64,000 nucleotides of DNA from Candidatus Eiseniibacteriota bacterium (GTDB taxonomy: Bacteria; Eisenbacteria; RBG-16-71-46; SZUA-252): NCBI GenBank assembly GCA_036505295.1, contig DASXTQ010000084.1:511-64510 (forward strand). The letters are read 5' to 3'. The notes under the pieces are model-generated. The model did no database searches. It saw nothing but the letters and a program-made list of their open reading frames with translations, and was not told where the DNA came from. This document shows positions 5,539-64,000 of this stretch, piece by piece; position 1 is the first letter of the stretch, and each line of letters starts with the position of its first letter. Made by a program: the position numbers and the translations under genes.

Positions 5539-5673
5539 CTATACCGTGAGGCGTTTGCGGCCTCGTTCTCGGCGGCGTTTCAGAACGGCGCGGCCGCCTC
5601 GCGTGCTCATGCGCTCACGAAAGCCGTGCACCTTCTTTCGGCGGCGATTGTGGGGCTGAAACGTGCGCTTCAC
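5539..5673 (-). CDS. rpmH: 50S ribosomal protein L34
   Basis: Manual translation of the minus strand gives V(M)[43 protein letters not shown] (44 aa). GTG start. Not in the ORF track because it is too short. Confidence 0.9.
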
Positions 5674-5974
5674 GTGGATTGCCTCTGTCGTTGGGAACGG
5701 GATGGACCGAACACGAGCGTCGGATTCTAACGAATCGCTTGGAATCGGTCAATGCGAAAGCCCAGTGGCCGCAGGCGATACCGCGTCGCCAAAATTTTCG
5801 TTGCGCGGGCTGGAATCGCGAGCGTATTCTGCGGCCATCGCGAAGGCCGAGAGCGTGAATGCTTCTCTCGCGCTCCGGGTCCTCGCCGCACCGGGCTTCC
5901 CCCGCGCAAAACGACGCGCCCCTTCACCCGGACCTAAGAGTTGTGAGCATTCCTCAAGCCGATTTCCCTTCATT

Positions 5975-7408: not shown

Positions 7409-7789
7409 CCCTTGTCTCTGGATTCAACCTGGCTTGGCGGTGGACACGCGGTGCACAAGTCCAGGAATCCGGGGCCTCCGCGGCGCACCGGGGATAACCA
7501 AAAGCTTATCCACATCTCATCACAGGGGTCCGGCCGCACAAATGACCTCACACTACATTGGCACACAACAACTTACTTTCTAGGCCGGCGCCTCTATCCA
7601 TACAATCCACCGACCCTATTACTACGTCTTCTATTCAAGGAACCTAATCTTCGTAGACCAGAGAGAAATCGCATAAAAATGAGGGGCTTTCCTATTGTGA
7701 AAATGCCCCTATCCACCTATACTTTTTTAGGACTTGAGACCCTCTCCCGAACCATCTGCAAACCCTAATCCAATAAAGGATTAACGGAG
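7409..7789. other. putative oriC (dnaA-dnaN intergenic): DnaA boxes plus an AT-rich unwinding region
   Basis: Perfect TTATCCACA at 7506-7514. 7/9 matches at 7488-7496 (cggggataa), ~7596-7604 (ctatccata) and 7709-7717 (ctatccacc). A locally AT-rich stretch at 7650-7740 (gcataaaaatgagg..., ctatacttttttagg). Confidence 0.6.
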
Positions 7790-7813
7790 ATGATCACCGC
7801 CCAGGAAGTGGCT

Positions 7814-8947
7814 ATGAAATTCTCGATCGCGCAGACCGAGTTCCTCAACGCTTTGCAGGTGGTTTCGAGCGCCGTTCCGACGCGGACGACGCTCCCGGTC
7901 CTGTCCAACATTCTTCTCGAAGCGTCCGAGGATCGCATCGAGATGCGCGCGACCGATCTGGATCTCGCAATCTCGACACGAGCGCAAGCCAGCGTGAAAG
8001 ACATCGGGACACTGACGGTTCCGGCGAAGAAGCTTTTCGAGCTGGTGCGAAAGCTTCCGAGAGAAGAGCTCAAGGTCGAGGCGAAGGATTTGACGCTGAA
8101 CATTGGAAGCAAGAACGGTCGCTACAAGTTCCTGTGCATCCGCCCGGAAGAATTTCCGGCGCTCCCCTCCGTCACCCCGGACGTGGAAGCATCGCTGGAT
8201 GCGGATCTCCTGGAGCGGCTCATCCGGCGCACGATCTACTCCGTCTCGACGGACGAGACGCGGCCGGCGCTGAACGGCTCGCTGCTTCAGATCAGGGATG
8301 ACGAGCTGCGCTTAGTGGCGACCGACGGGCACCGCCTCTCGAAGGCATCATGCAGGCCGGTGGGCGGGATTCCGTCGCCCCCGAAAGGGGACGTGATTGT
8401 GCCGCTCAAGGCATTGAATCAGGTCCTGCGTCTCCTACCGGGAGCCTCGGGGCCTGTCCGGATTGGTATTTCCAAGAACCACGCTCAATTCGCCATCGGC
8501 GACACCACGCTCACGACGAAGCTGATCGAAGGGCCGTTCCCGAACTATGAGCAGGTGCTTCCAAAGCAGAACAACAAGCATCTAAGAGTAAAGCGGGATG
8601 ATTTCGCCCAGGCGCTGGAGCGGGTTTCGGTTTTCTCCGACAGCCTCACGCGCCAAGTAAAGCTCTCCCTTCGCCCGAACCGTTTGACCCTGATCGTGCA
8701 GACGCCCGACCAGGGGGAGGCGACCGAAGAGCTGGACGCCCAGTACGCCTCGGACGATCTCGACATCGGTTACAACGCCGCCTACTTGCTCGACATTCTT
8801 CGCACCGTCGACAGCGAAGAGGTCGACATTCGTCTCAATACGCCGGTGACGGCCGGACTCATCGCGCCCACACCGCAAGGGGACAAGGGGAGCTCTGCGA
8901 ACGAGGATCTCCTTTGTCTCGTGATGCCCCTCCGCCTGGCGAGCTGA
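7814..8947 (+). CDS. dnaN: DNA polymerase III beta sliding clamp
   Basis: The ORF track starts at 7790. The in-frame ATG at 7814 (MKFSIAQTEF...) has an AGGAAG SD 5 nt upstream and the usual DnaN N-terminus. Confidence 0.85.
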   Translation: MKFSIAQTEFLNALQVVSSAVPTRTTLPVLSNILLEASEDRIEMRATDLDLAISTRAQASVKDIGTLTVPAKKLFELVRKLPREELKVEAKDLTLNIGSKNGRYKFLCIRPEEFPALPSVTPDVEASLDADLLERLIRRTIYSVSTDETRPALNGSLLQIRDDELRLVATDGHRLSKASCRPVGGIPSPPKGDVIVPLKALNQVLRLLPGASGPVRIGISKNHAQFAIGDTTLTTKLIEGPFPNYEQVLPKQNNKHLRVKRDDFAQALERVSVFSDSLTRQVKLSLRPNRLTLIVQTPDQGEATEELDAQYASDDLDIGYNAAYLLDILRTVDSEEVDIRLNTPVTAGLIAPTPQGDKGSSANEDLLCLVMPLRLAS

Positions 8948-27871: not shown

Positions 27872-29062
27872 GTGCGATGGATCGGTCTGATGCTCGGGCT
27901 CGGGTTTTGCCTGGGGCTGGTTGAGCCGGTGGAATGCGCCTCGGTTGGCCCGGTGAATTTCCAGGGCAACCTGGACCTCGTCGGTTTGAGCCGAACCGAG
28001 CAGGAGGGCATCAACACCCTGAACTTCGGCGAGAACCCGTTCCACACGGCCCGGATCCGTCTCTTTGCCGACGCCCCCATTCAGGATCACGTCCACGCCT
28101 TCACGGAGTTCCTCTACGACGACGAAACCATGATGGCGCGGCTCTTCGGGGGCTTCGTCCGGCTTTCGGATCCGAAAGGGCGCGACATCCATCTTGAGGT
28201 CGGAAAGATTCCGCTCCACTTGGGAGCCTATCCAAACCGCTCGTACGCGCCCCAAAACAACCTGATCGGCGCTCCGCTCATGTACCAATACCATACCGAT
28301 CTCCGCACCGATCAGGCCGCCGTTCGCGGCGAGGATATCGTGGCGAACCGGGGGCAAGGCTACCGTTCGAATTACATGACAGCGGGGCTCACGGGCGTAG
28401 GGGGCTCCGGGGGGGAGGCGGTTCCCGTCCTATACGAGAACTGCTGGGACTTCGGGATGGTCTTGATCGGAACGGCCGCGCCGATCGAGTTTGCGCTCGG
28501 CGTGACGAACGGGAGCGCGGCGCAGCCGGTCATGGGAGACACGAACAACGGGAAGCAGATTCTCGCGCGGCTCGGATTCGTCCCCGCCCCGTGGATTCGG
28601 GCCGGCGTTTCCGGATCGCGCGCCCCCTATCTCTACCAGGATCTGAATGAAGATCTGCCGCCGGGGAAGACGGTGGATCAATTCATGCAGAAGCTCGCGG
28701 CCGCCGACCTGGAGCTTTCCTATGGTCACGGCGTCCTTTACTCGGAGTTCCTCTTCAGCCGATTCGAGTCGCCGTTCATCGGCAACCTGGACCTCCGCTC
28801 CTGGTACGTGGAAGGCAAGTGGACCCTCCTGCCCGGCTGGTACATTGCCGGGCGATTCGACCGCATGATCTTCGCCGACGTGGCGCTCTCCGGAGGCGGT
28901 GTCGCGGCCTGGGACGCGGATCTTTGGAAACGCGAGATCGGGATCGGGTTCAAGCCGTCGAAGCGCCTGGTCGCGAAGCTTGTGCATCAGCAGTCCCAGG
29001 TCAACGTGACGCCTCCGCTCGTGCGCGCGTTCGCCGCGGCCCAGCTCTCGGTGGGGTTCTGA
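27872..29062 (+). CDS. secreted protein, probable outer-membrane beta-barrel
   Basis: GTG start, signal peptide, alternating amphipathic strands and a C-terminal ...SVGF aromatic end. Confidence 0.5.
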   Translation: MRWIGLMLGLGFCLGLVEPVECASVGPVNFQGNLDLVGLSRTEQEGINTLNFGENPFHTARIRLFADAPIQDHVHAFTEFLYDDETMMARLFGGFVRLSDPKGRDIHLEVGKIPLHLGAYPNRSYAPQNNLIGAPLMYQYHTDLRTDQAAVRGEDIVANRGQGYRSNYMTAGLTGVGGSGGEAVPVLYENCWDFGMVLIGTAAPIEFALGVTNGSAAQPVMGDTNNGKQILARLGFVPAPWIRAGVSGSRAPYLYQDLNEDLPPGKTVDQFMQKLAAADLELSYGHGVLYSEFLFSRFESPFIGNLDLRSWYVEGKWTLLPGWYIAGRFDRMIFADVALSGGGVAAWDADLWKREIGIGFKPSKRLVAKLVHQQSQVNVTPPLVRAFAAAQLSVGF

Positions 29063-29733
29063 TGCGCGCCGCACCCGCGACCGCCGCGGTGCTTCTCGTA
29101 GCGCTCCTCCGCGCGGCCGGCGCTTCGGCCGGCGCGATCACGGGAGAGGTTCTGGTCTCGCCCGCCGACCTCGCCATCCGCGATACGTCGAAGCCCAATC
29201 CGTACGTCGGTCAGCTCAGTGCTACCGCGCAGACGGTGGTCGCGGCTACGGTCGACACCGCCTACGGCGCGGCGTGGGTCGCCGATCCCGTACCCGATCC
29301 GGGCCCTCCGCCTCCCCCCGCCAGGATGGACCAGCTGGGCCAGCGGTTCGTCCCGCGCATTCTCGTCGTTCAGGCGGGGCAAACCGTCGAGTTCCACAAC
29401 AGCGATAATGTCTTTCACAACATTTTCTCCTACTCGCCCCCGAAGCACTTCGACCTGGGGCGCTACCCGAAAGGGAAGTCCCGGAGCGTGACGTTCGTGA
29501 AGCCTGGAGCAGTCCAGGTCTACTGCGACATCCACTCCGACATGCGCGCCGACATCATCGTCGCGCCGACACGCCATTTCGCCTTGATCGGGCGGAGCGG
29601 CCGGTTCCGCATCGAGAACGTGCCCGCCGGGACCCACACGGTCAAGGTGTGGCTGCCCAGCTCAGGCGAACGCATGGCCACGGTCGACGTGCCCGCAAAG
29701 GGCGCCGCCTCGCTCCCGCCTCTCGAACCGTGA
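29062..29733 (+). CDS. cupredoxin-like (type-1 Cu motif) protein with a C-terminal carboxypeptidase-regulatory-like domain
   Basis: ATG at 29062 overlaps the upstream stop. Signal peptide. FHNSDNVFHN...YCDIHSDM matches an H...C-x2-H-x2-M blue-copper ligand set. GRFRIENVPAGTHTVKVW is a CarboxypepD_reg-like strand. Confidence 0.55.
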   Translation: MRAAPATAAVLLVALLRAAGASAGAITGEVLVSPADLAIRDTSKPNPYVGQLSATAQTVVAATVDTAYGAAWVADPVPDPGPPPPPARMDQLGQRFVPRILVVQAGQTVEFHNSDNVFHNIFSYSPPKHFDLGRYPKGKSRSVTFVKPGAVQVYCDIHSDMRADIIVAPTRHFALIGRSGRFRIENVPAGTHTVKVWLPSSGERMATVDVPAKGAASLPPLEP

Positions 29734-31649
29734 AGCCGTTTCGGCTTCCCAGATTCCGGTTCTCGCTCGCGGCGAAGATCGCAACGACCACGTCGATCCC
29801 CATTCTGGCGATCCTGGTGGCCGCGCTCCTCGCCGTGAATTTCCGGGTCGCCGCCCAGGAGAACAGGACGGTCACCGCCGACCTCGCCCGCGCGGCCCTC
29901 TCCTTCGAAAAGCAGATGCTGCATCAAGGGGAGGAACTGAAGCGCATCGGGATCATCGTCGCGCGCGATCCGAAGTTCTTCGCGATGCTCACGCTTCCCC
30001 GAGTGGATCGCGGCACCGAGTATTTCCATGCGACGCTCGCAGGCGTCGTCGGCGATTTCCAGCGCGATACAGAGGCACAGGTCTTTGACGTTACGGACGA
30101 GCACGGGGTGGTTCTCGTCCGCGGGGGACGGCCCGACGAGCACGGGATCGACATCTCCGGCTCGAAGCTCATCCGGGAAGCGCTCGCGGGTCGTCCGGCC
30201 AGCGGATACATGGTGGAGGGACGGAAAGCCTACCGCGTCGCGGTCGTTCCGATTCTGGTCGGCGGCGCTCTCGTCGGCACCCTGACGCTCGGAAAGAGCG
30301 TGGACTCCGCGCTCGCGCAGGCTCTCAAGGAAACGACACGGAGCGATGTCGTGTTTGCCGTGGACGGCGAAATCGCCTTGAGCACCCTTCCCGAGTCCGC
30401 GCTCCGGAGCATGCTGCAAACGGAGATTCGCGAGTGGCGGGACGCCGACTCCCGCCGCCAGGCCGCCGCGGGACGACCGGGGCAGATGCTCGAGGTGCTG
30501 CCGGTCCAGGGGGAGCGCTTTCTCGCGCTTCGAGGCGACGTGACGGGTCCGGAAGTGGGAGGCCACCTCGGGTACGTGCTTCTGCGCTCCCTCGACCAGG
30601 AGACGGTAATTCTGAAAAGGATCGGAGTGGACCTCTCCGTCGCGGGGGCCACGGCCGCGCTCCTGGCGCTCTTGCTCGGTCTCGGGGTCGCGGCCGGAAT
30701 CACGCGGCCGATCCGGCGCCTCGTGGAAGCGGCCAATGAGATGCGGGTCGGCAACTACGACTTCCCGCTGAACGTCCGCTCACGGGATGAGATGGGGAGG
30801 CTCGCCGAGGATTTCGAAGCCATGCGCGATACCCAGCGGCACGAGATCGAGCGGCTCGGCGAGATCGACCGGATGAAATCAGATTTCATCGCCGTCGCCT
30901 CGCACGAGATCATCACCCCCGTCACGATGATCCGCGCGTACGCGGACATGCTCGGCGAAGGGGCGCTCGGGGAAGTCACCTCGCCCCAGCGTGAGGGGCT
31001 CTCCGCGATACGCCGGGGAACGGATACGCTGACTCGCTTGGCGCGGGACCTGACCAACATGTCCTTGATCGAGCGCAACCAGCTCCCCGCGCATTTCGCC
31101 TCCTGCGACATCGGCGAGGTCCTCGAAGAGGTCGCGGTGCAAGTCGCCCCCTTTGTGACGCAACGAGATCAGCAGCTCTCGATCGGCGTGGAGCCTGGGC
31201 TCGTCCATCCCCGCATTGATCGTGACTACCTGAGCAAGGCGATCCTGAACATCGCCATGAACGCCGTGCGCTTTACACCGGACGGGGGCTCGATCGGGCT
31301 TGGGGCGCAGAGGGTCGGAAACGCCGTTGAGGTCGAGGTGAGCGACACGGGGATCGGCATCGCCGAAGAGGACCAGGAGCGGATTTTCTCGAAGCTCGTC
31401 GAGCTCAAGGACGTCAACCTCCACTCCTCGGGGACGGCGGAGTTCAATTCCTCGGGTCTCGGCCTCGGCCTCTCGATCGCCCGCGGCATCGTGGAGGCGC
31501 ACGGGGGGATGATCCAAGTGGAAAGCCGCGTCGGTGAGGGGAGCATCTTTCTGATTCGGCTCCCCTTCCCCAGCCCAGAGGTCTATCAGGAAGAGACAAC
31601 CGCTTCGGACATTCGCCGTAAAGTCAACGCGACACATATAATCGACTGA
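29730..31649 (+). CDS. HAMP-domain sensor histidine kinase (orphan: no adjacent response regulator)
   Basis: GTG at 29730 overlaps the upstream stop. N-terminal TM, periplasmic region, second TM, HAMP, HisKA (VASHEIITPV) and HATPase_c (GLGLGLSIARGIVEAHGG). Confidence 0.8.
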   Translation: MKPFRLPRFRFSLAAKIATTTSIPILAILVAALLAVNFRVAAQENRTVTADLARAALSFEKQMLHQGEELKRIGIIVARDPKFFAMLTLPRVDRGTEYFHATLAGVVGDFQRDTEAQVFDVTDEHGVVLVRGGRPDEHGIDISGSKLIREALAGRPASGYMVEGRKAYRVAVVPILVGGALVGTLTLGKSVDSALAQALKETTRSDVVFAVDGEIALSTLPESALRSMLQTEIREWRDADSRRQAAAGRPGQMLEVLPVQGERFLALRGDVTGPEVGGHLGYVLLRSLDQETVILKRIGVDLSVAGATAALLALLLGLGVAAGITRPIRRLVEAANEMRVGNYDFPLNVRSRDEMGRLAEDFEAMRDTQRHEIERLGEIDRMKSDFIAVASHEIITPVTMIRAYADMLGEGALGEVTSPQREGLSAIRRGTDTLTRLARDLTNMSLIERNQLPAHFASCDIGEVLEEVAVQVAPFVTQRDQQLSIGVEPGLVHPRIDRDYLSKAILNIAMNAVRFTPDGGSIGLGAQRVGNAVEVEVSDTGIGIAEEDQERIFSKLVELKDVNLHSSGTAEFNSSGLGLGLSIARGIVEAHGGMIQVESRVGEGSIFLIRLPFPSPEVYQEETTASDIRRKVNATHIID

Positions 31650-31764
31650 TTCTAAATCAATTACGCCTCAATCTACGCTGCAGTCACAAACAAGTCAGTT
31701 TTTGTTGACTGTTTACCCGCCTCGCTCGTGCCTCGGAGTCGCATTTTGCCACACCATCAATCCT

Positions 31765-31785
31765 CTGTAAGACAAACGCTTACAG
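31765..31785. promoter_or_regulatory. 7-N7-7 inverted repeat CTGTAAG-acaaacg-CTTACAG, candidate enhancer/operator upstream of the sigma-54 promoter
   Basis: Read directly. About 45 bp upstream of the -24 element. Confidence 0.35.
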
Positions 31786-31810
31786 ACTATCGGTGCAACG
31801 GAATTGCAAA

Positions 31811-31826
31811 TGGCACGGCGGCTGCT
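31811..31826 (+). promoter_or_regulatory. candidate sigma-54 (RpoN) -24/-12 promoter TGGCACGgcggCTGCT
   Basis: Matches TGGCACG-N4-TTGCW with 1 mismatch. GG at 31812-13 and GC at 31824-25 (12 bp apart). About 65 nt upstream of the first micro-ORF. Confidence 0.55.
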
Positions 31827-31890
31827 ATTACCTTCCGACGTCACCAGTTCCGAAGGTGAGCAGTGAACCCCAAATCAGATGAGGTGTGTG

Positions 31891-31965
31891 ATGGAAGCTC
31901 TTCTCGCGATTCTCGTGATCCTGTCGTTCGCTGGTACCGGCCCTGACGGCAAGGCCGGCTGGTAG
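31891..31965 (+). CDS. micro-ORF 1: 24-aa hydrophobic peptide MEALLAILVILSFAGTGPDGKAGW
   Basis: GAGGTG SD 4 nt upstream and a single predicted TM helix. The C-terminal PDGKAGW is shared with micro-ORF 2. Confidence 0.5.
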   Translation: MEALLAILVILSFAGTGPDGKAGW

Positions 31966-32036
31966 GAAGCAGCTGTACCAAGGAAACCCCCGATCCACCG
32001 GTTCAACGAAGCAACCTGAAGGGAGGTGAGAACCAA

Positions 32037-32108
32037 ATGGAGCTGATTCTCCTGCTAATCGTCGCCTACAGCACGATAGTTCCTCCGGACGGAAAGGCCG
32101 GCTGGTAA
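32037..32108 (+). CDS. micro-ORF 2: 23-aa hydrophobic peptide MELILLLIVAYSTIVPPDGKAGW (paralogue of micro-ORF 1)
   Basis: GGGAGGTG SD 8 nt upstream. The 3' 24 nt are nearly identical to micro-ORF 1 (gacggNaaggccggctggtaR). Confidence 0.5.
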   Translation: MELILLLIVAYSTIVPPDGKAGW

Positions 32109-32174
32109 GAGCGGCGTAGTTCTCGGCTTCGCGGGGAGGGCGAACCCCTGCGAGCCGGAGTAAGGCGGATCGAT

Positions 32175-32213
32175 GGGCCATCAGTTGGCTTCCCCTGATG
32201 GCCCTTCGATTTT
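32175..32213 (+). terminator. rho-independent terminator GGGCCATCAG-N10-CTGATGGCCC followed by TTCGATTTT
   Basis: A perfect 10-bp GC-rich stem with a T-rich tail, directly downstream of micro-ORF 2 and upstream of lon. Confidence 0.7.
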
Positions 32214-32324
32214 GGGGGGCATGGGGGCGGGGGGCGACTGGCCATCGGCAGGGAAGCTGTGATACCGTGGCCTTCGTACCCTCGCCCTCGACCCTCGTCT
32301 TCCCTGGCGGAAAGGATCGCCTTC

Positions 32325-34859
32325 ATGAGCAAGCGACCGATGTCCGAGATCGGCCGGATGCTCGAATGCGACGTGCCCCCGGTCATGCCGGTGCTCCCGC
32401 TCATGAGCACCGTCGTCTTCCCGCTCGGTGTTACCTCGATCCAGATTCGTCTCGAGCAGTCGAAGGCGCTCCTCCGCGATCACGCAGAGCCCGACGAGCT
32501 GGTCGCGCTCGTCTACAGCCCGGCCAAGAGCGAGAAAGATCTTAACCCTGAGCAGCTAAGCAAGATAGGCCTCGCCGCCCGGGTGATCCGGATCCTGAAC
32601 ATGCCAAACGGCAACGTCCAGGTCACCCTCGAAGGATTGCGGCGCATAGCGGTCGAGGAGATACTCAGCAGAGATCCCTACATCGAGGCCCGCGTATCCT
32701 GTCCGCTCGAGAACGAGGTGGACCCGGAGCGCGCGAAGCTCCTCGCGACCCGGATCCTGCAGCACCTCAAGGCGATCTCCCAGCTCGACCACTCCTACCC
32801 CGCCGAGATGGACAACATCTTCAGCATGAACCTGGGGGACCCCGGCCTCTTTGCCGACACCGTGGCTTCGATCGTGCGGCTTCCGGTTGAGGCGAAACAG
32901 AAGGCGATCGAGACCTTGAACATCGAGGAACGCCTGGGTTTCGTGGCCGAATCCCTCGAAAGCGAGGTCGCTCGTCTCAGTGTCGCCGAGGACGTCGTGC
33001 GCCGTGCGTCTGCCCAGGTCGACAAGAATCAGAGGGAGTTTTTCCTCCGCCAGCAGCTCGACGAAATCCGCCGTCAGCTCGGCGAAGAAGACCCCCAAGA
33101 AATGCTCGTCCGGCAGATTCTGGACCGCGCGGATACCTTGGGCCTGCCGCAGCACGTTCGCTCGGTGGTGTACGAGGAGACGAACCGGCTTCGCTATTTG
33201 GCCCCGACCTCGCAGGAGTCCGGGGTGATCCGCAACTACATCGAATGGCTGCTCGCGCTGCCTTGGAACAAGCCGGTGCGCCAGCCGATCGACTTGGACG
33301 AGGTAACGCGTAGGCTCAATGCGGAGCATTTCGGCCTGGACAAGGTGAAGGAGCGGATCCTCGAGTACCTCGCCGTGCTCAAGCTGAAGAACGATCTCAA
33401 GGGCCCGATCCTCTGCTTCGCGGGCCCGCCCGGCACGGGGAAGACGTCGCTCGGGAGCTCGATCGCGCGCGCCATGGGGCGCGATTTCGTCCGGATGAGC
33501 GTGGGGGGCGTGCGCGACGAGGCGGAGATCCGGGGCCACCGCCGCACGTACATCGGCTCCCGGCCCGGGAAGATCATCCGAAGCTTGCGGGACGTCCATA
33601 GCTCCAACCCCGTGTTCATGATCGACGAGATCGACAAGCTCGGCCACGACTCCCAGGGGGATCCCGCCTCAGCGCTCCTCGAGGTGCTCGACCACGAACA
33701 GAACGCCAATTTCGTGGATCACTACATCGAGATCCCGTTCGACCTCTCCGAGACGCTCTTCATCACGACGGCGAACGTGCTCGATTTCATCCCGGCGCCG
33801 TTGCTCGATCGGATGGAAGTGATCCAGATCCCCGGGTATATGGACGCGGAGAAGATCGAGATCGCCAAGCGTCACCTGATTCCGCGGGCGGCCCGCGAGC
33901 ACGGGCTTCAGGAAGGGGATATCGCGTTCGACGACGCCGCGATCACGAAGATGATCCGCGAGTACTCCCGGGAGGCGGGCGTCCGGCAGCTCGAGCGCGC
34001 GATCGAAACCGTATGCCGCAAGTGCGCGCGTCAGAGGACCACCGGGTACACGGGCCGATGGAGTTTCGGCGAGGCCGACATCGAGAAACTTCTAGGTCCT
34101 CCCTATGTCCTCCCCGAAATGGCCGAGGGACACGCCGAGGTCGGCGTGGCGACCGGGCTCGCGTGGACCACGACCGGCGGGGACCTGCTTCTCATCGAGG
34201 CGCTCAAGATGCGCGGGGCCGGGCGCGTGATCGTGACCGGGCAACTCGGAGACGTGATGAAGGAGTCGGTTCAGGCGGCGCACAGCTATGTGCGTGCGCG
34301 GGCGGAGCTACTCGGCATCGACCCCGAGGTCTTCGATGATTTCGATCTCCACATTCACTTTCCCGAGGGCGCGGTTCCCAAGGACGGCCCCTCCGCGGGC
34401 ATCACGATCGTGATGGCAATCGCCTCGGCGCTCGCCGAGGCGCCGATCCGACACGACGTCGCGATGACGGGGGAAGTGACGCTGCGAGGCAAGGTGATCG
34501 CGGTCGGGGGCCTGAAGGAGAAGATCATGGCGGCCCACCGCGCCGGCATCAAGACGGTGGTATTCCCCTCGGATAATCAGAAGGACGTGGTCGAAGTCCC
34601 GGACTCGGTGCGCGCGAGCATGACCCTCGTTCCGGTGAGCGCCGTCGACGAGGTCTTCCGCTATGCCTTCGTCGGGGTTGCGGAGCGCATCGCCGAGCTG
34701 GAGGCCCGAAAGGCCGCCGCCGGCCGGCGAAAGGCGGAGGCCAGGAAGCGGAGGGCGAAACGCGGGAACGCGCGCAGGAAAACTCGACGCCCCGAGCCCC
34801 AACCGCGCCAGAAAGCCGCGAGGGAGCGCTCCCCCGGTGTTCCCAAGGGGAGACGCTAG
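32325..34859 (+). CDS. lon: ATP-dependent protease Lon
   Basis: Lon N-domain, AAA+ (GPPGTGKTSLG) and a Ser-Lys dyad protease (PKDGPSAGIT). ATG at 32325 with an AAAGGA SD. Has a Lys/Arg-rich C-terminal tail. Confidence 0.9.
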   Translation: MSKRPMSEIGRMLECDVPPVMPVLPLMSTVVFPLGVTSIQIRLEQSKALLRDHAEPDELVALVYSPAKSEKDLNPEQLSKIGLAARVIRILNMPNGNVQVTLEGLRRIAVEEILSRDPYIEARVSCPLENEVDPERAKLLATRILQHLKAISQLDHSYPAEMDNIFSMNLGDPGLFADTVASIVRLPVEAKQKAIETLNIEERLGFVAESLESEVARLSVAEDVVRRASAQVDKNQREFFLRQQLDEIRRQLGEEDPQEMLVRQILDRADTLGLPQHVRSVVYEETNRLRYLAPTSQESGVIRNYIEWLLALPWNKPVRQPIDLDEVTRRLNAEHFGLDKVKERILEYLAVLKLKNDLKGPILCFAGPPGTGKTSLGSSIARAMGRDFVRMSVGGVRDEAEIRGHRRTYIGSRPGKIIRSLRDVHSSNPVFMIDEIDKLGHDSQGDPASALLEVLDHEQNANFVDHYIEIPFDLSETLFITTANVLDFIPAPLLDRMEVIQIPGYMDAEKIEIAKRHLIPRAAREHGLQEGDIAFDDAAITKMIREYSREAGVRQLERAIETVCRKCARQRTTGYTGRWSFGEADIEKLLGPPYVLPEMAEGHAEVGVATGLAWTTTGGDLLLIEALKMRGAGRVIVTGQLGDVMKESVQAAHSYVRARAELLGIDPEVFDDFDLHIHFPEGAVPKDGPSAGITIVMAIASALAEAPIRHDVAMTGEVTLRGKVIAVGGLKEKIMAAHRAGIKTVVFPSDNQKDVVEVPDSVRASMTLVPVSAVDEVFRYAFVGVAERIAELEARKAAAGRRKAEARKRRAKRGNARRKTRRPEPQPRQKAARERSPGVPKGRR

Positions 34860-34889: not shown

Positions 34890-35258
34890 TCACCGCTTCG
34901 ATTTTCCCCGCGAATTGAGAATCGAGTCCGCCAGGCTCCACGCCGCCAGGATCAAGATCGGCCATGTGATGTCGAAGAAGAGACGCCGCTCGAAATACAC
35001 GTAGGCAAGCGCGAGCAGGATGAGGAGAAACCCGAAGACGCGATAGAGGACCCCCGGGAGGAGTCCTCCCGAACCCAGCAACCGCCCCTCCCCGGCGGGC
35101 ACGAGGGCGACGGTTCGCGTGAACCCGACGAAATACATCACCATCCCGGCGAGGATGCCGTGCGAGGTATCAGGCGACCATCGGAGGGGAAGGACGGCGA
35201 ACACGCCGCAGCCGATGGCGATCAGGCCGGCGAAGATGGGAATCCAGGAGGGTCGCAT
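34890..35258 (-). CDS. hypothetical integral membrane protein (3-4 TM)
   Basis: Hydrophobic helices with a probable start at MRPSW (35258). Confidence 0.45.
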   Translation of the reverse strand: MRPSWIPIFAGLIAIGCGVFAVLPLRWSPDTSHGILAGMVMYFVGFTRTVALVPAGEGRLLGSGGLLPGVLYRVFGFLLILLALAYVYFERRLFFDITWPILILAAWSLADSILNSRGKSKR

Positions 35259-35262
35259 GGCG

Positions 35263-35976
35263 CTATCCCTTGAAGGCCTGAATCGCACAGTAGAGGGCTG
35301 CGCCTAGGATGGCCGCGCCGGAGCCGACCGTGACGCAGCCGGGAAAGTTTCCCATCGAGTTGCAGGCGTCATCAACATTTCGGAGAAGCATGTCGGCGAG
35401 AGGGATGAAACATACGCCGAACCTTGCCCAGTTGAAACGCTCCGGAGCCCGAACCACGATCCCCGCCGGGGAGGGTGTATAGACGGCGCCCTCTTTGATC
35501 CAGAGACTGTTCTGCCCGGAGTTGACCGGCTGAAACCCCGCTTCCAGCAAGCTCGGATCGCGCCGGCGGACGAGCTCGAAGCTCTGCACTTGAGCCATGG
35601 CGTTCACCTCGAGCAGCGCGAAGTAGACGGCGTGGGCGAGATCGTCACGATATTGATATGGAAGGATCGTGATCCGGACGCGGCGTCCGTCCACCATCGT
35701 TCCAAGCGCCCCCACGATGCCGGTTCGCAGAAGTCCAAGCCGTGGGTCCGTGGCTCGGTCCGCGAGCGCGCGTGCCATCAGCGGGCTCTTCGCCGCGCGC
35801 GCCGCTGCTTCACGAATTTCGCCGTCTCCCGTGATCCACCACGCTTCCCCGATATCCGAGAGACTCGGCTGCGGAGCAGGGGCCGGATCGGTAACGCGAT
35901 GGGCCCCTTGCTTCGTGCACCCGGAAAGTCCGATGGCGATCGCGGAGACGGCGAGGAAAATCTCGAAACGTTTCAT
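35263..35976 (-). CDS. hypothetical lipoprotein
   Basis: Likely start is MKRFEIFLAVSAIAIGLSGC (lipobox) at 35976, with a GGAGGGGTG SD upstream. The track extends to 36045. Confidence 0.5.
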   Translation of the reverse strand: MKRFEIFLAVSAIAIGLSGCTKQGAHRVTDPAPAPQPSLSDIGEAWWITGDGEIREAAARAAKSPLMARALADRATDPRLGLLRTGIVGALGTMVDGRRVRITILPYQYRDDLAHAVYFALLEVNAMAQVQSFELVRRRDPSLLEAGFQPVNSGQNSLWIKEGAVYTPSPAGIVVRAPERFNWARFGVCFIPLADMLLRNVDDACNSMGNFPGCVTVGSGAAILGAALYCAIQAFKG

Positions 35977-36210
35977 ATCGGCACCCCTCCTGGATTCGCG
36001 CGGCCAAGGCCGCGCCGTTGGGCGCCGAGGAGCGAGGGCGTCCATCGAACGAGCACGATCCGTTCCAAGGGGTGCATCGCCACACGATTTCGTCGCGGCG
36101 AGCGAACGGAGTGCCCGCGTGGTGCTTGGAACGGCAAGGGCGCGGACGCGCGTGGAAGCCGGCGCGGATCCGGGCGTCGGAGGTCCGACGGCGTTAGGTC
36201 CGGCGGAGGA

Positions 36211-63725: not shown

Positions 63726-64000
63726 TAATCGACCATCCTCTCGACATCACGCGTACGGAGCGATTCGCCTAGATGACCGGCCGTGGCCCTCCTTTTGACG
63801 GCGTCGGGAGTCCGTCGCGGGCACGCGACCCCGCACCACCGCTAAAGCACGCCGGATGGCGGATGACCCAAAGGCACGCCGTTTGCAGAGCCGCTGTATC
63901 GTGCCGCGGCCGCTGCGCCCCTGCTTGCGTGACGAGCACGCGGATCACGACCCGCTGGATGGGTAAGCCCGTGGACGGGGTGGTCGGAGGGGGAGGCGGA

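Follow-up and report, generated by a model that had tools for sequence, protein, structure and literature searches.

A gap of 675 bp between a sensor histidine kinase gene and lon, in the 64,000-nucleotide stretch of DNA from an uncultured soil bacterium (Candidatus Eisenbacteria) analysed here (hereafter the window), holds a compact unit: a sigma-54-type promoter with an enhancer-like dyad upstream, two tandem micro-open reading frames (ORFs), each led by a Shine-Dalgarno (SD) sequence, and two 3' stem-loops, the second of which resembles an intrinsic terminator (Table 1). A preliminary description of the window had proposed the promoter motif, the two SD-led micro-ORFs and the terminator hairpin, and all of them were found where it had placed them. 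It had also called the gap the most AT-rich part of the window; at 57.5% G+C the gap (31650-32324) ranks second, after positions 7494-8168 with 52.1%.

Table 1. Features of the unit and its surroundings; positions are those of the window.
Feature	Position	Strand	Remarks
Sensor histidine kinase (dCache_3-HAMP-HisKA-HATPase_c)	29649-31649	+	Pfam
Gap between kinase ORF and lon	31650-32324		675 bp, without annotated ORF
Proximal enhancer-like dyad GTCAGTTTTTGTTGAC (GTC-N10-GAC)	31694-31709	+	117 nt 5' of TGGCAC; presumably bound by a bacterial enhancer-binding protein (bEBP)
A/T-rich dyad CTGTAAG-N7-CTTACAG containing ACAA-N4-TTAC	31765-31785	+	Inverted repeat; between enhancer and promoter
Sigma-54-type promoter TTGCAAA-TGGCAC-GGCGG-CTGCT (-24 GG, -12 GC)	31804-31826	+	Unique in the window
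ORF1 Shine-Dalgarno GAGGTG	31881-31886	+	Full 6/6 match in 61/66 loci; G201/G203/G204 invariant in alignment A2
Micro-ORF 1, 24 aa, MEALLAILVILSFAGTGPDGKAGW, stop TAG	31891-31965	+	Invariant ATG, wobble-only tail, whole-codon lengths, pN/pS 0.63
ORF2 Shine-Dalgarno GGGAGGTGA	32021-32029	+	GGAGGTG kept in alignment A2
Micro-ORF 2, 23 aa, MELILLLIVAYSTIVPPDGKAGW, stop TAA	32037-32108	+	Evidence as for ORF1; body pN/pS 0.23
Stem-loop with nearly invariant apex GG-GCGAA-CC	32122-32160	+	Inner stem 32130-32136 / 32145-32152; RNAalifold, compensatory changes
Intrinsic-terminator-like hairpin ATCGATGGGCCATCAG / CTGATGGCCCTTCGAT, then TTTT	32169-32213	+	Compensatory changes; U-run 3-5 in relatives
Boundary element outside the unit, CTGGCCA...TGTGATACCGTGG	32237-32271	+	Terminator-to-lon alignment
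lon (ATP-dependent protease La)	32325-34859	+	Pfam LON_substr_bdg, AAA, Lon_lid, Lon_C

The two micro-ORFs end alike. Their 3' ends form a 26-nt direct repeat that is 88% identical (31942-31967 and 32085-32110), and the pattern GGN AAR GCN GGN TGG TRR, which specifies GKAGW and a stop codon, matches twice in the window against 0.00 matches expected; the doubling of the GKAGW tail in the window is not due to chance. An in-frame ATG located 5' of the ORF1 start, at 31879, is not conserved in relatives, whereas the ATG at 31891 is invariant.

The preliminary description had taken the heptapeptide PDGKAGW as the signature shared by the two peptides. When one genome per species was scanned for this heptapeptide plus stop, only one of the 25 matches was a real locus (L018, from the metagenome-assembled genome Ca. 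Eisenbacteria WS_7), and the heptapeptide was therefore judged too narrow. The residues ahead of GKAGW differ among relatives (…PPPGGKAGW, …GGGGGKAGW, …AYGKAGW, …NPDGGKAGW), so the conserved signature is the shorter GKAGW followed by the stop. The L018 locus, the closest relative, has the gene order of the window and a mean column identity of 93% over the unit, with an in-frame 6-nt indel in ORF2.

Relatives were next sampled through Lon, that is, independently of the peptide sequence. An exact database look-up of the Lon protein of the window returned no record; homologues of Lon formed a tight clade of 74-91% identity, below which the identity dropped to about 51%. We fetched the DNA around eight members of this clade. 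In seven of them (L026, L027, L028/29, L030, L031, L032 and L094) the unit was located within about 0.5 kb 5' of lon, where a sigma-54-like motif precedes two micro-ORFs in tandem, each coding for 20-25 residues and ending in GKAGW-stop. The eighth member (L095/L096) carries the unit 4.6 kb 5' of lon, as was seen on a longer flank, and the interval contains the gene of a 169-aa periplasmic protein and two genes on the opposite strand. The unit is absent from the outgroup locus L033, the Lon of which is 51% identical.

When metagenomes were scanned for pairs of GKAGW-stop tails separated by 110-140 nt, with TGA permitted as the stop codon, 60 loci were obtained from soil, rhizosphere, sediment and groundwater, and 58 of these represent the unit; since the pattern itself required GKAGW-stop, the invariance of the tail in these loci is partly a matter of ascertainment. 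The remaining two, L090 (a tandem repeat) and L093 (an interspersed repeat array), were rejected as chance matches to the pattern. The unit was thus found in about 65 further loci with 55 unique sequences, all belonging to one Ca. Eisenbacteria clade with Lon identities of 74-97%, to which the GKAGW family is confined as far as it has been sampled. The peptides are kept, together with the tail that the preliminary description had supposed to be under constraint, in all 9 in-clade loci sampled through Lon and in the 58 metagenome loci.

The coding character of the micro-ORFs is visible in several features of these alignments. The 66 loci gave 91 unique peptides of 18-26 residues. Across the loci the ATG of ORF1 and the two SD sequences show no or hardly any variation, and the distance from start to tail changes by whole codons only, with eight different lengths for each ORF; in noncoding DNA only one indel in three preserves the frame. 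The codons of the tail vary exclusively at the wobble position (GGC/GGA/GGT/GGG, AAG/AAA, GCT/GCC/GCA/GCG, GGC/GGT), and the same is seen in the Lon-based sample. The proportions of nonsynonymous (pN) and synonymous (pS) differences were calculated from orthologue pairs of equal length with at least 75% nucleotide identity. The pN/pS ratio of the peptide body was 0.63 in ORF1 and 0.23 in ORF2, and in the tail pS was about 0.2 and pN 0. In addition, the stop codons of the micro-ORFs are TAA in 77 cases, TAG in 19 and TGA in none, whereas TGA is the commonest stop of the long ORFs of these loci (51%). The comparison thus detects purifying selection at the codon level, as the reading of the preliminary description requires, and to judge from these patterns it is clear that both micro-ORFs are under protein-level selection.

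What is kept in the peptide body is composition rather than sequence. With a grand average of hydropathy of 1.82 the body is hydrophobic, and its run free of charged residues and proline has a median length of 14 residues (range 11-19). Lysine or arginine besides the invariant Lys occurs in only two of the 91 peptides, and residue 2 is usually Ala or Glu. The two copies within a locus resemble each other more than they resemble copies from other loci (identity outside the tail 0.69 vs 0.45), their linkers co-vary, and the inter-ORF spacer and SD are homologous throughout the clade. The similarity of the copies within loci, together with this clade-wide homology, therefore points to an old duplication followed by concerted evolution. 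Tryptic digestion is predicted to release M(E)ALLAILVILSFAGTGPDGK and MELILLLIVAYSTIVPPDGK.

Searches of Pfam-A, NCBIfam and PDB gave no significant match to the peptides or to their profile, and in the literature on the motif, on small proteins encoded next to lon and on sigma-54-dependent small membrane proteins we found nothing relevant beyond enterocin HF and glmY. As judged from these searches, the GKAGW peptides are a small-protein family not described before. To our knowledge, annotation hardly ever includes genes for proteins shorter than 30 residues, very few examples have been described beyond the model bacteria, and we know of no cultured member of the Eisenbacteria phylum. Public annotation includes gene calls at L026 5475-5645 (56 aa) and at L094 3378-3596 (72 aa), both running through the promoter into ORF1. 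The start of these called proteins lies 5' of the sigma-54 promoter or within it, and their …CKWHG.C… motif is the translated promoter; judging by this overlap, both calls are annotation artefacts. ORF2 is called in none of the annotated loci. Annotation pipelines therefore overlook the two ORFs altogether or report a spurious protein of 56-72 aa, an error that should be corrected.

The promoter motif TGGCACGGCGGCTGCT (31811-31826) is one mismatch away from TGGCAC-N5-TTGCW. Its first 15 nt, TGGCACGGCGGCTGC (31811-31825), are the sole match in the window to TGGCAC-N5-YTGC, with 0.25 matches expected in 64 kb; at least one match was present in 22 of 100 shuffles of the window, and the match alone is therefore not significant. 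Across the relatives, GG-N10-GC is present in all 55 unique units, 75-105 nt 5' of the ORF1 ATG, and the block TTGCAAATGGCACGGCGGCTGCT is almost invariant (alignment A2, 37 units). Transcription would be expected to start at about 31836-31838.

The palindrome upstream of the promoter, which the preliminary description had regarded as a possible enhancer site, proved to be a GTC-N10-GAC dyad at a fixed and strongly enriched position. The 54 unique 300-nt upstream regions contain 70 such dyads vs 4.3 expected, an enrichment of about 16-fold, and they occur almost only at -117 and -181 from TGGCAC, i.e., 64 bp or about six helical turns apart. In the window the -117 dyad is intact and the -181 position, inside the 3' end of the kinase gene, is degenerate. 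The core of the dyad is contained in TGTC-N10-GACA, the consensus of GlrR/QseF. Sites of this sequence accompany the sigma-54 promoters from which the small RNAs GlmY and GlmZ are transcribed, and these promoters also require integration host factor (IHF; PMC3045617). The consensus ACAAnnnnTTAC of the A/T-rich element at 31765-31785 is kept in alignment A2 and resembles the IHF core (WATCAR-N4-TTR), and this dyad might serve as a DNA-bending site or as the site of a second regulator. By its arrangement of motifs, the layout is that of a canonical activator-dependent sigma-54 promoter. A second sigma-54-like motif, AGGCACGCCGTTTGCA at 63872-63887 (+), is likewise one mismatch away from TGGCAC-N5-TTGCW; inspection by eye revealed no GTC-N10-GAC dyad upstream of it, and the gene downstream is cut by the end of the window.

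At the 3' end of the unit, the arms of the terminator-like hairpin (32169-32184 and 32195-32210) are 16 nt long, rather than the 10 bp given in the preliminary description, and 94% complementary, and are followed by TTTT. A strict E. coli-style terminator scan does not call the hairpin at 32169-32213, because the T-run consists of only 4 T. RNAalifold analysis of 30 diverse 3' regions revealed two helices. The first has the apex GG-GCGAA-CC at 32130-32152 inside an outer stem at 32122-32160, and the second, the terminator-like one, has 13 pairs with compensatory changes at the closing and loop-adjacent pairs and is followed by 3-5 U. The apex motif GGGCGAAC[CT]CC is unique in the window, and the apex as well as the terminator core GGGCCA/UGGCCC is nearly invariant clade-wide.

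Taken together, the alignments indicate in silico conservation of the promoter, the dyads, the SD sequences and start codons, the reading frame, the tail and the terminator-like hairpin, in addition to the protein-level selection. The structural reading of the preliminary description, i.e., a promoter of sigma-54 type serving two hydrophobic paralogous micro-ORFs that are followed by a terminator, all beside lon, is thus supported by the comparative data, and it withstood those of its refuting conditions that could be computed.

As to the position next to lon, in 48 loci the ATG of lon lies 198-322 nt 3' of ORF2 on the same strand. A conserved element, CTGGCCAGC…TGTGATACCGTGG, is located between the terminator and lon in most lon-linked loci, excluding L027 and L035, and in the window this element (32237-32271) is a possible promoter or operator of lon itself. 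Between the stop of ORF2 and the hairpins lie anywhere from about 15 to >60 nt, and some lineages have an additional hairpin inserted there. In several lineages genes for FadL-like outer-membrane, 165-178-aa periplasmic and beta-barrel proteins lie 3' of the unit, and where other genes separate it from lon the unit stays intact. No lon is present within 4.6-5.3 kb downstream of the unit in L075/L076. The possible promoter of lon, the unfixed spacing and the inserted genes speak against a functional link with lon, and the unit is therefore taken to be an independent transcription unit with its ancestral place beside lon. Of the link to lon suggested by the preliminary description, the adjacency held, whereas the functional part is not borne out by a unit that has a putative terminator of its own and is separated from lon by genes in some lineages; synteny by itself neither shows nor excludes a functional tie to Lon.

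That the unit has another genomic copy independent of lon was also considered and was rejected at least for the L054-type loci: L096 has the unit, the periplasmic-protein gene, the opposite-strand genes and lon in one locus, and this order implies that the L054-type loci are the same locus with inserted genes, whereas L075/L076 may still be a second copy. The conserved 165-178-aa periplasmic protein (…ADNMxxLRxKLKADKKLVV…FWPVY…) has no Pfam match and is encoded in L096 (5738-6247) as well as in L076, L075, L054 and L083, where lon does not come directly after the unit. Its gene lies directly 3' of the unit or after the FadL-like gene, adjoined by the gene of the beta-barrel outer-membrane protein.

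On the other side of the unit, a homologue of the dCache_3 kinase is encoded directly 5' in most loci, including L075, in which lon is not downstream, and the gene order makes this kinase a candidate sensor for the unit. No response regulator gene adjoins the block of unit and kinase. The unit as nothing but a part of the upstream kinase operon was rejected, the kinase being missing beside it in the L027 and L028 lineages. In many loci the block upstream of the unit (27872-31649 in the window) consists of three genes in a row, the first for a 396-aa secreted protein without Pfam match, the second for a cupredoxin-like protein and the third for the dCache_3 kinase. About 2 kb without a called gene extend from the tRNA methyltransferase gene to the unit in L096 (3009-5088), at the position taken by the kinase in other loci, and may represent a decayed kinase gene.

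We consider it reasonably probable that the unit is a stand-alone, signal-inducible and sigma-54 activator-dependent gene of about 380 nt making two membrane micro-proteins. According to this explanation, a bEBP would bind the GTC-N10-GAC dyads about 117 nt (in relatives also 181 nt) upstream, and would probably be the response-regulator partner of the adjacent dCache_3/HAMP histidine kinase. The DNA would bend at the A/T-rich IHF-like site, so that sigma-54 polymerase could be activated at TGGCAC-N5-CTGCT. Transcription would proceed from near 31837 to the hairpin plus U-run at 32213, and both micro-ORFs would be translated from their strong SD sites. In the predicted products of 23-24 residues, a Gly/Pro-rich linker joins a hydrophobic helix of some 14 residues to the C-terminal GKAGW; we infer that the peptides embed in the cytoplasmic membrane and that their Lys/Trp tail stays at its interface with water, where it would contact a partner protein. 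As partner, a membrane protein belonging to the same signalling or stress pathway would be most likely, and the physiological role might be, e.g., feedback on the kinase similar to that of MgrB on PhoQ. The identity of the partner is a guess; kinase feedback would fit the gene order best, and Lon appears to be a weaker candidate.

Several observations weigh against this explanation. A run of 11-19 residues is, as predicted from the peptide sequences, short for a transmembrane helix. Neither rpoN nor a bEBP gene is encoded in the 64-kb window or in the fetched loci, where GAFTGA, Walker A and RpoN-box signatures are absent, and the sigma-54 machinery is therefore deduced from the promoter. The kinase does not lie beside the unit in the L027 and L028 lineages. 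As the U-run is short (3-5 U), termination may be partial. The apex and the terminator stem seem over-conserved for a plain mRNA 3' end, which points to an extra function at the RNA level. Finally, the tail invariance in the 58 metagenome loci being partly due to ascertainment, the Lon-based sample is the sole unbiased one.

The conservation of the 3' end leads to the alternative that survives best, a dual-function or mainly regulatory sigma-54 small RNA which would act through the 3' stem-loop and the terminator hairpin by base-pairing or protein binding, the ORFs being a second output or stabilisers of the RNA. The 150 nt 3' of ORF2 (32109-32260) are 100% identical between L018 and the window, while the body of ORF2 has diverged, and the near-invariance of GGGCGAAC and GGGCCA/UGGCCC in the clade would be accounted for as well. 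RNAs that are both peptide-coding and regulatory are known, and so are kinase-adjacent sigma-54 small RNAs with a related enhancer consensus, such as glmY with GlrK/GlrR. However, both ORFs bear the clear protein-level selection described above, and the predicted transcript as a whole is no more structured than shuffled sequence (z = -0.8). No Rfam 15 family reached its gathering score in the window, and at E ≤ 5 the region 31500-32450 gave only a chance match (E = 0.86). Moreover, the lineage of L032, L041, L044 and L081 has swapped the first, otherwise conserved hairpin for another one, and complementarity to a target was not established. We regard a dual-function or mainly regulatory RNA as unlikely.

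It is rather improbable that the C-terminus GKAGW-COOH tags the peptides for recognition by a quality-control protease. Anchored in the membrane, they would in that case regulate Lon or a protease that reads C-termini through a PDZ domain, serve it as an adaptor or occupy it as a decoy substrate, and couple an envelope signal sensed by dCache_3 to proteolysis, and the GNRNA-type hairpin with its weak terminator could add regulated read-through into lon.

The size and hydrophobicity of the peptides, their tandem paralogy and the apparently inducible promoter would also fit type I toxin-like peptides, i.e., stress-induced, membrane-depolarising products, perhaps under antisense control. Type I toxins such as TisB, Ibs, Ldr and Fst are very small hydrophobic peptides with paralogous copies and stress-linked expression. 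The unit differs from them in having strong SD sequences on both ORFs, for which the predicted fold gave no clear sign of sequestration, and one promoter for two ORFs on a single transcript instead of separate toxin-antitoxin units. It occupies a single, syntenic, vertically inherited locus and is neither mobile nor multi-copy. No antisense gene or promoter was identified, though no dedicated search for antisense promoters was made, and the antisense ORF at 31828-32181 does not keep its frame across the relatives, as the length differences among the spacers are not multiples of three. A toxin function thus seems quite improbable to us.

Another alternative makes the micro-ORFs leader peptides of lon. 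The sigma-54 promoter would then serve lon, and translation of the micro-ORFs, e.g., stalling at GKAGW-stop, would decide between termination and read-through. The same-strand arrangement of the 48 lon-linked loci and the short U-run, which makes read-through plausible, are compatible with such a mechanism, and an invariant C-terminus behind a variable N-terminus is also seen in arrest peptides, of which SecM and TnaC are examples. However, because the spacing between the stop and the hairpin varies, a ribosome at the stop would have no fixed effect on the terminator, and in some lineages the extra hairpin intervenes. No conserved anti-terminator pairing was seen, a promoter-like element is conserved 3' of the terminator, and the opposite-strand genes of L096 and the lon-free flanks of L075/L076 separate the unit from its supposed target. 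The preference for TAA argues for efficient translation termination over stalling, and the conserved hydrophobic body would have no role. Attenuation in the strict sense was rejected on the variable spacing, the missing alternative pairing and the separation from lon, and control of lon by leader peptides in general we hold to be very improbable.

Precursors of secreted or modified peptides, either bacteriocin-like or ribosomally synthesised and post-translationally modified peptides (e.g., with a streptide-like Lys-Trp cross-link in K-A-G-W), are the least probable alternative and an extremely unlikely one. In their favour, peptides of this sort are often encoded by small, nearly identical ORFs in tandem, M16 peptidase genes occur some 5 kb upstream, and GGKAGW is also a C-terminal motif of enterocin HF (...TTGGKAGWK), the best PDB match. 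Against them, the peptides lack a YGNGV box, a double-glycine leader and any other leader, and they are much too hydrophobic, and not cationic enough, to be a soluble bacteriocin. The M16 genes are encoded on the opposite strand, past the tRNA methyltransferase gene, and in the eight annotated loci the annotation within about 4-10 kb of the unit contains no radical-SAM (S-adenosylmethionine) or other maturase, no ABC (ATP-binding cassette) exporter and no immunity gene. The GGKAGW shared with enterocin HF and related class IIa bacteriocins extends over about 7 residues only and is non-significant (E = 0.45), and the GKAGW unit differs from them in having no pediocin box, leader or accessory genes; on sequence grounds the resemblance is probably due to chance.

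For the favoured reading of a sigma-54-dependent gene making two membrane micro-proteins, the closest known parallel in regulatory layout is glmY/glmZ of the Enterobacteriaceae with the GlrK (QseE)/GlrR (QseF) system, which likewise gives a short stand-alone sigma-54 transcript (PMC3045617). As in the unit, several dyad enhancers with a GTC-N10-GAC core and IHF-like A/T-rich sites near the enhancers lie 5' of the promoter, and glmY is also a small gene beside a sensor-kinase gene. In contrast to glmY/glmZ, the unit belongs to a different phylum, carries two micro-ORFs and has no adjacent response-regulator gene, and there is no similarity in sequence or structure (no Rfam match).

As to the products, MgrB, SafA, PmrR, MgtS and AcrZ are signal-induced regulatory membrane micro-proteins of Enterobacteria. 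The GKAGW peptides resemble them in their predicted single hydrophobic helix, their apparent dependence on signalling and their being missed by annotation, and the mode proposed here, binding of a larger membrane protein, possibly a sensor kinase, would be shared. Unlike the MgrB-type proteins, the GKAGW peptides are shorter (18-26 aa), are always encoded as two tandem copies per transcript that evolve in concert, and have an invariant C-terminal pentapeptide; they show no sequence similarity to that group, and their promoter is of the putative sigma-54 type. The staphylococcal psm-alpha operon and RNAIII/hld encode leaderless peptides of 20-26 aa on short regulated transcripts, RNAIII combining an ORF with a structured regulatory RNA. 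The psm-alpha operon is similar to the unit in its several leaderless small peptides in tandem on a short regulated transcript. The GKAGW peptides are, however, uniformly hydrophobic and not amphipathic or secreted, and neither their sequence nor their regulation is related to those of psm-alpha and RNAIII.

The anatomy of the unit, with enhancer-like dyads, sigma-54-type promoter, two SD-led ORFs and terminator-like hairpin, is unusually complete and conserved, and the invariance of the GKAGW end suggests that it makes a specific molecular contact. From the motifs of promoter and enhancer, a sigma-54 regulon of Eisenbacteria could be defined and an orphan sensor kinase paired with its output. 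If it is true that the peptides act on Lon or on the kinase, they would represent a new type of small-protein regulator.

Some further observations concern other parts of the window and of the sampled loci. The most AT-rich stretch of the window (7494-8168, 52% G+C) takes in the intergenic region 7409-7789 before the ORF at 7790-8947, and the Rfam search of the whole window gave no match in it. The false-positive locus L093 contains at 5560-5900 direct repeats of ~33 nt (CCCTCAGTCCCCCCGCAGAGCAGGGGGGAGG) with a palindromic core and short spacers, which gives them the look of clustered regularly interspaced short palindromic repeats (CRISPR) or of repetitive extragenic palindromic (REP) elements. 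Two conserved genes without Pfam match, at 34890-35288 (-) and 35263-36045 (-) in the window, follow lon at its 3' side in nearly all loci; both diverge fast, with identities of 27-93%.

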